DNA of 64,000 nt, from the NCBI GenBank assembly GCA_051942245.1, contig JAVECL010000036.1, positions 1 through 64,000 of the forward strand, read 5' to 3'. The notes beneath the pieces are model-generated. The model did no database searches, was not told the DNA's origin, and worked only from the letters and a program-made list of their open reading frames with translations. This DNA comes from Trypethelium eluteriae. Taxonomy: Eukaryota. Position numbers and translations under genes: made by a program. This document shows, piece after piece, positions 60,079 through 62,877 of this stretch (the first letter of the stretch is position 1; each line of letters starts with the position of its first letter).

Positions 60079-60937
60079 ATGGCTCCTAAAATCGCTATTG
60101 TCTTTGTACGTAGTCTCAGCTGATTGATCAGTCCCCTACCCTTATCGTTGCGGATTCGATCGCATTTAGCAAGTTTCTAACCTGACATATTAATACAGTA
60201 CTCTATGTACGGGCATATTCAAAAGATGGCCGAAGCCGAGAAGAAGGGTATTGAAGAAGCTGGTGGCTCTGCGACCCTCTATCAGGTTGCAGAGACATTG
60301 CCGCAGGAAGTCTTGACCAAAATGCATGCCCCACCCAAACCCTCAAACATTGAGACTTTGTCCGATCCTAAGACCCTGGAGCAATACGGTAAGCTACTCA
60401 AGTTCTCTCTAGTCAATGCGCACTCCTGGGTAGGATACCAACGTACGCTTGTTCCGCTGGGTCTGTATTCAAATCCAAACTCAAACTCAGCATGACCTAA
60501 TGATCTCTCATCGCGATGTCTAATTCGGTCTACTAGATGGCTTTCTCTTCGGCATTCCTACCCGTTACGGCAACTTTCCCGCACAATGGAAAGCCTTCTG
60601 GGACCACACATCAGCTCAGTGGCAGACCGGTGGCTATTGGGGCAAATATGCTGGCGTCTTCGTCAGTACAGCAACACAAGGTGGTGGCCAGGAGGCTACG
60701 GTCGCCAACTCTTTGAGCACCCTTGCCCATCATGGCATTATATACGTGCCCCTTGGCTACAAGACGGTTTTCGGTGCCATGGCCGACCTCTCTGAAGTGC
60801 GAGGCGGCAGTCCCTGGGGTGCTGGCACTTTTGCATCTGCAGATGGCAGCCGTCAGCCTACGGAGAAAGAGTTGAGTATCGCAACGGAGCAGGGAAAGGC
60901 TTTCTACAACCATCTCAGTCGGGTCAAGTTCGATTGA
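60079..60937 (+). CDS. PST2: Flavodoxin-like NAD(P)H:quinone oxidoreductase (WrbA/Pst2/Alt a 7 family), 3 exons
   Basis: MAPKIAIVF|YSMYGHI, GIPTRYGNFPAQWK, GGGQEAT, GGSPWGAGTFA..DGSRQP. Introns at 60106-60198 and 60389-60536. Confidence 0.95.
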
Positions 60938-61108
60938 CTAGATGGCAGTCAAGATGCCGCTGCTGCTGGACAGGCTTCGGGATCAGGTGAGACGACAGCG
61001 AAAACAACCCACTCGTCTGGTAATCCTGGGAATGAGAGCACAGCGGAGGGTGATGAACCGAAAGAAAAAGGACCATGCGGTTTGCCGGTCAGATGCTCGA
61101 TATTATAG
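60935..61108 (+). other. Predicted stop-codon readthrough extension of PST2 ending in a CaaX box
   Basis: TGA-CTA-G context followed by 56 open in-frame codons ending GPCGLPVRCSIL-TAG. Confidence 0.75.
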
Positions 61109-61730
61109 TACCTGCGGATGCTTTCGAGATGGTGCGTGCTCGTGAATGGTAGTGTGTGTTCAACAGGATTTGATAGCTCAGCATTTCCTTCATAGTGATA
61201 CCTTAGACAAAACAGAGCCGAGCATAATCTTTCAGTTCTAGCTTTCAAGGAGAATACTAAGTGATGTGCTGTAATTCACAAATGAGAGGACTGTGCATTG
61301 TTGGCTACGAATTTTGCGATGATTGATTATGATGTATTACCACTGTTCAGTGTTTATCAAGTCGAGCGCAGTGACTTATTGTGCTAAGCAAAGGATTCAA
61401 CAAGTGGCAACCTATAACGAGCGGACTTGACAGATTCACGTGGTTCTAGCATTGCGAGCCCATTGAGAGTTTTGTTCATAATTTTGGATTCCATTACATG
61501 ATACATGGCTCGTATGTTAATCTTGTAGATCAGTCCTATCCAAAGCTACAATCTTGGCCTGGTCTTCAGTTTGTTATATCTGACGAAGCGTCAGTTCCGC
61601 TCGTGTCTTCGCAACCGCAAAAAATTAGGTATTGCTCTCACGATCGCAAGTCCCACCATTCTGCTACCTTATCTCGACCCAGTTCTCCATCGCGACTCAT
61701 TTCAAGGACAGCTCAAGTCAGCGAACTCAC

Positions 61731-62877
61731 TTACCTGTCGCGACCAAATGTTGGTCGACCCTTCGGGGTTGTCTGAATGACATCTTCAATCTCCTTCATC
61801 ACTTCCGGAGTCAACTTCTCCAACAGCTTGAGCGCCTTGCAATTGTCATGGATTTGTTCCACTTTTGTGGCGCCCAAAATGACAGTAGATACGTTCTCAT
61901 TTTTAGCGCACCATGCTAGAGCTAATTGCGAGGGGTTTCCGCCGAGTCGCTCGGCGATGCTAGAGAGTTTGCGCACTTTCTCGATTTTGGATTTGCCTTC
62001 ATCGGTCTTCAATTCCTCAATGGTGGAGTTGAAAAATGATGCATGATTAGCGAAACGAGAACCTTCGGGAATACCGTCGTTGTATTTTCCAGTCAAGAGG
62101 CCAGAAGCAAGAGGTGACCAGATCGTAGTACCGTATTGATATTGCTTGTATAATGGGTCATATTCGACTTCAAAGCGCTCCCGGTGAAACATGTTGTATT
62201 GAGGCTGTTCAGCGATTGGCGCAATGAGATTGTATTTCTCCGCAACAAGGTTGGCTTCACTGATTTGTTGAGCTGACCATTCCGACGTACCCCAGTAATA
62301 GGCAAGATTTTGATTGCGGATCACCTGTGTGAAACCCTCAACAATCTCCTTCATGGGAGTTGCGTAATCAGGACGGTGAGCAAGCACAATGTCGACGTAT
62401 GGTTGTTGTAATCGCTTTAGGGAAGATTTCAGTCCCTCGACAACATGTTTCTTGGACAAGCCTCGGGTATTGGGTTCTTTACGTGAGGTACCGAAGAAAA
62501 TCTTGGTTGCGAGGACGTATTCGTCTCTTGGCCAAGCAAGTTCCTTGAGTGCTTGGCCCATCTCAATTTCGCATTGGCCCGAAGCATAGACCTCAGCCGT
62601 GTCGAAAAAATTGATTCCATTATCCCAAGCAGCTTGCAGACATTCTTTCACGATATTACCCTTCTGAGTGCCGCCATAAGTAAGCCATCCACCGAGAGAG
62701 AAGACGGAGACTTTGAGACCTGAAGGGCCCAAGTGGCGAAAGATCTGGGGACTTAGAATTAGCGAACATGATTTACTCGTAGAGTAACGTTACACTCTCT
62801 CGTAGTTTACTTGAGACTGACGCGGGCGGTTTGAGACATACCATATCCTTGGGATCATACTTGGATTCGACAGCCAT
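61731..62877 (-). CDS. Aldo-keto reductase of the Kv-beta-like (AKR6) type, 2 exons plus an optional terminal exon
   Basis: [61 protein letters not shown]. Intron at 62745-62841. Confidence 0.93.

Follow-up and report, generated by a model that had tools for sequence, protein, structure and literature searches.

Why should a quinone reductase gene that ends at a UGA stop codon be followed, in the same reading frame, by 56 further codons that close on a CaaX box? Such an arrangement is found in a stretch of 64,000 nucleotides of Trypethelium eluteriae (assembly GCA_051942245.1, contig JAVECL010000036.1, positions 1 to 64,000 of the forward strand), which is called the window hereafter. The original prediction, made from the letters alone, held that ribosomal readthrough of the stop codon adds a lipid-anchor tail to the enzyme, so that this fungus makes a soluble and a membrane isoform from one gene. 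The TGA, its 3′ context, the frame and the CaaX tail are conserved across many Pezizomycotina, and we consider it likely that one gene supplies two forms of the reductase, most of the product being soluble and a minor part prenylated and bound to a membrane. The feature is not special to "this fungus": it spans at least four classes of Pezizomycotina, the window included.

The gene and the open frame behind its stop codon

The core gene model consists of three exons (60079-60105, 60199-60388 and 60537-60937), which together encode 205 amino acids and a stop codon. The plus strand at 60923-60946 reads GTC AAG TTC GAT TGA CTA GAT GGC, which places the TGA at 60935-60937, as had been claimed, and the readthrough context UGA CUA G at 60935-60941. 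Behind it, the frame from 60938 to 61108 stays open for 56 codons until a TAG, and its translation, LDGSQDAAAAGQASGSGETTAKTTHSSGNPGNESTAEGDEPKEKGPCGLPVRCSIL, is exactly the one foreseen: a linker that ends in two cysteines six residues apart, with CSIL directly before the TAG and its Cys exactly four residues from the C-terminus, the CaaX position. Core and tail are separated by an in-frame TGA rather than joined in one uninterrupted long frame of the Ycp4 type. The features of the locus are the following.

60079..60105, plus strand: exon 1 (MAPKIAIVF), with the ATG at 60079 and a GTACGT donor at 60106; N-terminus as in the database protein P0002
60106..60198, plus strand: intron 1 (GTACGT...CTAAC...CAG), at the same position in genomic relatives, where the frame opens ...YS[MT][YW]GH
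60199..60388, plus strand: exon 2, translation identical to residues 10-72 of P0002
60389..60536, plus strand: intron 2 (GTAAGC...CTAAT...TAG), joining G and AT to an Asp codon as in P0002
60537..60934, plus strand: exon 3, remainder of the flavodoxin-like quinone reductase core; Pfam FMN_red and Flavodoxin_1 above their cut-offs on P0002
60935..60937, plus strand: TGA, proposed leaky stop; same junction TGA in 62 of 63 distinct tail-bearing relatives
60938..60945, plus strand: CTAGATGG, conserved 3′ context (+4 to +11), from base counts in the 57 loci with TGA-CT
60938..61069, plus strand: low-complexity linker of the extension, 44 codons; in relatives variable in length and always in frame, with a ratio of nonsynonymous to synonymous substitution rates (dN/dS) of mostly 0.12-0.45
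61070..61105, plus strand: conserved tail GPCGLPVRCSIL, with the upstream Cys at 61076-61078 and the CaaX box CSIL at 61094-61105; motif form in 63 of 67 distinct relatives (sample described below)
61106..61108, plus strand: TAG, terminator of the extended form; the second stop is variable in relatives

The core is a predicted flavodoxin-like NAD(P)H:quinone oxidoreductase of the WrbA/Pst2/Ycp4 family. A protein search with it gave 3879 proteins at E <= 0.001, and the best-matching names were benzoquinone reductase, NADH-quinone oxidoreductase Pst2 and Alt a 7 / Cla h 7. The best match, P0002, is a benzoquinone reductase of Viridothelium virens, a lichen-forming Dothideomycete; it has 205 amino acids, is 99% identical, differs from the window by one residue within the compared part and has the same ...KFD end. 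By this match the organism would be V. virens or a fungus very close to it. Pfam finds on it a flavodoxin-like domain binding flavin mononucleotide (FMN_red, 45.6 bits against a cut-off of 24; Flavodoxin_1, 42 bits against 25).

Is the open frame behind the TGA more than an accident? A frame of 55 open codons would arise by chance in about 7% of cases, as estimated by (61/64)^55. In an alignment with 24 homologues, the last 12 residues of the extension match the ends of "long" forms of about 250 residues, all of which end in GPCGLPxKC-x-x-X, while the "short" homologues all end exactly at the position of the window's TGA. Since the last 12 residues match GPCGLPxKCxxx of the long homologues, and since the tail recurs in 63 of the 67 distinct loci, the open frame is not due to chance. 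G+C content is 0.54-0.57 across the extension, which is coding-like, and 0.41 past 61100. The 56-residue extension matched no Pfam family.

The stop codon and the tail in relatives

Relatives' loci (L numbers below) were collected by searching metagenome contigs with tblastn, and the best 80 of 475 confirmed loci gave 67 distinct sequences. The tail is found in 63 of these 67, which is not a frequency for the whole family, because the query contained the extension and tail-bearing loci are over-represented; ranking by such a query does not prefer loci with TGA at the junction to loci with a sense codon there. As the loci share ancestry, the counts that follow are descriptive and do not represent independent events. 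No tail was present in any frame in L012, L049 and L070, and L066 is cut by the end of its contig.

In all 63 tail-bearing loci the tail lies in the frame of the core, behind extensions of 44-100 codons, and in 62 of them the stretch from the junction stop to the tail contains no other stop. The junction is never a sense codon. It is TGA in 62 and TAA in one (L076), and the next codon is CTA in 45, CTG in 12, ACG in four, TCG in one and AAA in one, the last after the TAA of L076. The expectation that orthologues would conserve TGA-CTA, frame-preserving indels and a terminal CaaX thus holds for the great part of the sample. Quite different is the behaviour of sites expected to be neutral, which are randomised over the same evolutionary distances: the second stop is TAG in 26 loci, TGA in 24 and TAA in 13, and the codon preceding TGA takes 18 different forms in the 57 loci with TGA-CT. 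The tail-less loci L012, L049 and L070 end in TAA, TAG and TAA, respectively, and therefore TGA is held only where a tail follows; their existence means that the tail was lost, or that a tail-less paralogue exists.

How widely is this distributed? Taxonomic placement relied on comparison with named proteins. The best named match of L002 is a Rutstroemia protein (Leotiomycetes, 99.5% identity), that of L018 comes from Penicillium citrinum (Eurotiomycetes, 98.8%), those of L058 and L060 from Alternaria alternata (Dothideomycetes, 95-96%) and that of L026 from Fusarium lateritium (Sordariomycetes, 93%), and all five loci have TGA CTR and the tail.

Three other ways of decoding the junction were considered and rejected: reassignment of TGA to a sense codon, as TGA is the final terminator in 24 of the 63 loci; frameshifting, as all 63 tails lie in frame 0; and insertion of selenocysteine, as fungi are described as lacking the machinery (PMC4207609).

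The nucleotides around the proposed leaky stop

In Ustilago maydis and in HeLa cells, a UGA needs no more than CU(A)(G) behind it to be read through efficiently, and readthrough drops when UGA is exchanged for UAG or UAA (PMC4207609). UGA CUA G is named as the high-readthrough motif (PMC12233894), and readthrough rises from UGA CU to UGA CUA and further to UGA CUA G (PMC4207609; PMC12233894). Conservation in the 57 loci with TGA-CT goes further than this. Positions +4 to +6 are C in 57, T in 57 and A in 45 or G in 12; +7 to +9 are G in 34 or C in 18, A in 54 and T in 50; +10 and +11 are G in 55 and G in 47. The consensus is UGA CUR NAU GG between variable flanks, and the window has the commonest base at each position.

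Can codon usage explain these preferences? The Leu codons in the cores of the same 57 loci are CTC 351, CTG 147, CTT 124, TTG 108, CTA 52 and TTA 12, so that CTA makes up 6.5% and CTA with CTG 25%, while the Leu codon after the stop is CTA or CTG in 57 of 57. Similarly, the codon after CTR ends with T in 47 loci (GAT 31, CAT 13, TAT 2, AAT 1) and is NAC in one, while the cores favour C-ending codons (GAC 231 against GAT 129, CAC 183 against CAT 73). The context is thus best read as constrained at the nucleotide level beyond the amino acid sequence, and as held against codon preference.

The extension as a coding sequence

From 23 alignable pairs of related loci, dN/dS was estimated. The 16 pairs with a synonymous divergence (dS) of at least 0.29, which belong to only seven clusters, gave values of 0.10-0.59 for the whole extension, mostly 0.1-0.4, and of 0.12-0.79 when the first three and the last 14 codons were removed. 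Six pairs are nearly identical, with three substitutions or fewer each. To judge by these ratios, the extension is under constraint at the protein level.

Transcripts of relatives may be represented in the sample as well. Among the 80 loci, 25 are contigs of about 1-1.8 kilobases whose frame runs unbroken from the initiator Met to the first stop and which lack the introns of the genomic loci and of the window; 23 of them have TGA (with TCG next in L016) and the in-frame tail, and the contig of L009 ends in an A-rich run resembling a poly(A) tail. These intron-free contigs are presumably spliced mRNAs, and taken as such, the predominant transcript would keep both the stop and the extension, perhaps alongside a minor spliced form.

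Thus, the leakiest stop codon is always used, its context is kept against codon preference, and the open frame behind it is constrained. This is the pattern expected if selection maintains leakiness.

The CaaX tail

All 63 tails end in C-x-x-X with Cys four residues from the end. The last residue is L in 33, M in 16, S in five, A in three, Q in three, V in one and I in one, and a single P is an artefact of the internal stop of L076. Leu at this position directs a protein to geranylgeranyltransferase I, and L, M, S, A and Q are all classically accepted by prenyltransferases. The tail had been called a geranylgeranyl-type signal. This fits the CSIL of the window with its terminal Leu but does not extend to the relatives, in which X varies, so that prenylation as such, rather than geranylgeranylation or any one particular lipid, appears to be conserved. 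The upstream Cys, six residues before that of the CaaX box, is invariant and is a candidate palmitoylation site.

How one gene may supply two enzymes

We infer that the stop codon is bypassed by ribosomal readthrough, and the efficiency of the bypass, the lipid modification and the localisation of the product are likewise proposed from comparison of sequences. Most ribosomes would terminate at the UGA at 60935-60937 to give the soluble enzyme of 205 residues. In the weak context UGA CUA G, or UGA CUR NAU GG in its extended form, some ribosomes would decode the UGA by a near-cognate tRNA and, in passing over the 56 codons, append a disordered linker and the tail GPCGLPVRCSIL. The CSIL box may then be geranylgeranylated, and the Cys six residues upstream may be palmitoylated. 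The long isoform would be anchored at a membrane, and the plasma membrane is the probable candidate: flavodoxin-like proteins of yeast and Candida have been detected there. The stop context would set the ratio of soluble to lipid-anchored enzyme from one gene. With somewhat less confidence, we lean to the wider proposal that UGA CUR NAU GG is an ancient recoding signal across Pezizomycotina (at least Dothideomycetes, Eurotiomycetes, Leotiomycetes and Sordariomycetes), which would split one quinone reductase into a soluble pool and a prenylated pool protecting membrane lipids.

Several observations weigh against this proposal, in addition to the enrichment of the sample for tails, the shared ancestry of the loci and the few clusters behind the dN/dS values. 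Six tail-bearing loci lack TGA-CT (L016 has TGA TCG; L039, L040, L046 and L056 have TGA ACG; L076 has TAA), and therefore a tail can persist without the canonical context. L012 is 79% identical to the window over 128 columns of the core and is the window's nearest neighbour in a quick tree; being so close and yet tail-less, it indicates that the tail is dispensable in some genes. In this tree of 57 core sequences, which is poorly resolved with six of 51 inner branches starred, the tail-less loci are placed among TGA-CT loci, in a way that cannot separate old paralogues from recent losses. The conservation of +7 to +11 could come partly from a need of the protein for Leu-Asp/His-Gly. No conserved RNA structure was predicted 3′ of the stop (0 pairs in 33 aligned sequences), and the first 100 nucleotides after the window's stop fold no better than shuffled sequences (z-score 0.57), so that no structure accounts for any stimulation beyond the short context. 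One pair of loci, L007-L008, has a dN/dS of 0.85 overall and 1.16 in the linker at a dS of 0.14, and another, L010-L016, has 0.59 and 0.79. Two RNA runs each gave one small contig, at 60969-61119 and at 60636-60822, with a sequence equal or almost equal to that of the window; neither spans the TGA, and they are silent on splicing, editing and the stop. Finally, CSIL has Ser, a non-aliphatic residue, at position a1.

Long and short forms in databases

The family is annotated inconsistently across databases. Among the best 120 database proteins (P numbers), 82 end at the TGA site, 33 carry the tail and five end otherwise. In the 33 tail-bearing ones the residues around the stop are absent: when the named long forms P0014, P0045, P0072 and P0115 are compared with L018, L002, L058/L060 and L026, respectively, 5-30 residues spanning the TGA are missing. 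When L018 is set against the P. citrinum protein, the gap falls on a GT...AG stretch of 15 nucleotides (GTGACTGCATGGTAG), which is far too short for a fungal intron and is most simply a gene-prediction artefact that keeps the frame open. In the Alternaria-like loci the stretch omitted from the protein models is about 90 nucleotides long and starts with GTGACT; this one may be a real minor intron. Three database proteins, P0008, P0017 and P0089, have Trp at the stop position followed by LDGS, and P0017 has Trp also where the loci carry the second stop, which suggests a gene call reading TGA as Trp. For the three, either the gene caller took TGA as Trp or TGG has been fixed in some species. The "Ycp4-like long forms" of databases would seem to be no separate gene but this one, with gene models that skip the stop. 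If so, 82 of the 120 best homologues are truncated at a leaky stop, and 33 have the tail without the residues flanking it.

Other explanations

Could readthrough be real and the tail serve something other than lipid anchoring? The Cys-x6-Cys end might mark the protein for degradation, form a metal or redox motif, or bind another protein. Against this, the tails without exception place the Cys exactly four residues from the end, and X comes overwhelmingly from the residues that prenyltransferases accept. The yeast counterparts Ycp4 are, moreover, described as CAAX-ended and palmitoylated (PMC4556627; 10.1101/2023.04.27.538084). In favour of another function, the extensions gained by stop loss in Fusarium are destabilising tails (PMC13123824), and the conserved block GPCGLPxKC is longer than a CaaX box, which hints at more than recognition by a prenyltransferase. 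We regard a non-lipid tail as unlikely, although it is the alternative that survives best.

Alternative splicing, by which a minor transcript would drop the TGA and join core to tail, is very unlikely for the window. In some relatives it finds support: the junction is intron-like in L039, L040, L046, L056, L066, L076 and L078. The first five of these read TTTG|GTGCGTGA..., with GCTAAT about 45 nucleotides on and then AG, making a segment of 63 nucleotides; L076 and L078 read G|GTGCGTAA...GCTAAT...AG, a segment of 69 nucleotides with two in-frame stops, so that the tail seems reachable only by splicing there. L080 has an intron-like junction segment too, though its TGA is followed by CT. In these Sordariomycete-like segments a GTGCGT donor overlaps the stop, and the length of 63 or 69 nucleotides preserves the frame. 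The intron-like loci are nested in an otherwise TGA-CT group, with weak support in the quick tree. It looks like the readthrough site was replaced by a stop-containing, frame-preserving intron in some Sordariomycete-like lineages, and if this is true, readthrough and splicing would be interchangeable evolutionary solutions at one site. A parallel is offered by the cryptic peroxisomal signals of fungi: Freitag et al. in 2012 (cited in PMC3840789) reportedly found that the same C-terminal signal is reached by splicing or by readthrough, depending on the species.

In the window itself, no consensus donor is found near the TGA, where the candidates are GTCAAG, GTCGGG and GTTGAG and none is GTRAGT or GTNNGT, and an in-frame excision would be 48 nucleotides long or would lose the conserved last helix. 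Splicing requires neither a protein conserved right up to and after the stop nor a specific stop codon, but both are conserved, and the 23 intron-free contigs retain the TGA.

Among the relatives, L005 (at about 740-760) carries GTGACTAGCTAACACGCAG right after the stop, a stretch of 19 nucleotides with donor-, branch- and acceptor-like elements. It is probably coincidental, as it is too short for an intron and its excision would break the frame.

Editing of adenosine to inosine in the mRNA, which turns UGA into UGG as in the sexual stages of filamentous ascomycetes, would give the same long product. C-terminal extensions by such stop-loss editing are widespread in Sordariomycetes (PMC13123824), and the Trp followed by LDGS in the three database proteins above counts in favour too. 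Editing in fungi, on the other hand, favours UAG (PMC13123824), and no TAG occurs at this junction, which has TGA in 62 of 63 loci. What is conserved is the readthrough context CUR and not a hairpin; at the window's stop neither an editable UAG nor the hairpin loop in which such targets often lie is present. The feature also extends to classes for which editing is not documented in the literature examined. Editing is highly improbable as the source of the tail.

That the extension is an untranslated relic of a recently truncated Ycp4-like gene, through a strain-specific nonsense allele or a sequencing error, is scarcely credible: 82 of the 120 best homologues are annotated as ending at the TGA site and tail-less relatives do exist, but a decaying 3′ region would gather frameshifts and stops, whereas frame and tail are intact with dN/dS below 1, TGA stands in nearly all distinct tail-bearing relatives from at least four classes, and the independent protein of V. 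virens, as well as dozens of relatives, stops at the same codon.

Relation to known systems

Functional stop-codon readthrough in cellular genes has few well-understood examples, and in fungi it essentially concerns peroxisomal targeting. The arrangement proposed here shares with the peroxisomal cases (PMC4207609; PMC4359377) the stop and its context UGA CUA G and the logic of a C-terminal targeting signal, by which one gene serves a larger cytosolic pool and a smaller relocated one. It differs in the signal, a CaaX box in place of a peroxisomal targeting signal of type 1, and in the extension of 44-100 codons with a disordered linker, the flavodoxin-like host and the conservation up to +11. 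Neither the word "flavodoxin" nor "quinone" occurs in PMC4207609.

The long product resembles yeast Ycp4 in enzyme family and in architecture, with core, linker and a Cys-containing lipidation end. In Candida albicans, Ycp4 is flavodoxin-like and carries a C-terminal extension that is lipidated (PMC4556627), and the Ycp4 of S. cerevisiae is reported to be palmitoylated (10.1101/2023.04.27.538084). The long form is described in these yeasts as a separate paralogue, whereas here an in-frame TGA splits core and tail within one gene. The idea of a readthrough-appended CaaX box is shared with one Drosophila extension (PMC3840789) and with Arabidopsis MT1C (10.1101/2021.11.09.467898), each having a predicted prenylation signal. 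Those are isolated predictions from motif scans for which neither deep conservation nor a test is reported in these texts, while here both tail and stop context are conserved across many lineages. Stop-loss editing in Sordariomycetes (PMC13123824) likewise makes extended isoforms without a change in the DNA, but it acts on UAG, is stage-specific and gives destabilising tails, in contrast to UGA in a readthrough context.

The allergens Alt a 7 and Cla h 7 belong to the same gene family, and many homologues bear these names in databases. They are known as the short product of about 204 amino acids. Three loci that are 91-96% identical to an Alternaria alternata protein (L058, L060 and L063) have the junction TGA CTA GAT G and the tail, and no mention of an extended, lipid-anchored isoform of Alt a 7 / Cla h 7 is made in the literature found. 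Full-text searches, subscription journals and supplements aside, gave no paper in which Pst2, Ycp4, flavodoxin-like proteins, Alt a 7 or Cla h 7 are linked to readthrough, and none in which a conserved readthrough-appended CaaX box is described. The mechanism and the motif are known; the payload and the gene family are new, and the depth of conservation is unusual.

What would follow if the proposal is true? It would be the first conserved case of programmed readthrough for lipid anchoring and not for peroxisomal import, and, on comparative evidence of unusual strength, a second cellular use of readthrough, namely conditional lipid anchoring. It would also explain how Pst2-like and Ycp4-like enzymes come from one gene in filamentous ascomycetes. 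The extended context of 11 nucleotides may mark more readthrough genes in fungi, and could serve as a small natural reporter in studies of how termination efficiency is controlled. As the family includes the allergens Alt a 7 and Cla h 7 and the enzymes of oxidative-stress resistance in Candida, an unrecognised membrane isoform would also be relevant to fungal stress biology.

A neighbouring gene

Convergent to the reductase gene, the minus strand at 61731-62789 carries an open frame of 352 amino acids of the aldo/keto reductase family (Pfam Aldo_ket_red, 196 bits), whose 3′ end lies about 620 nucleotides from the end of the extension.

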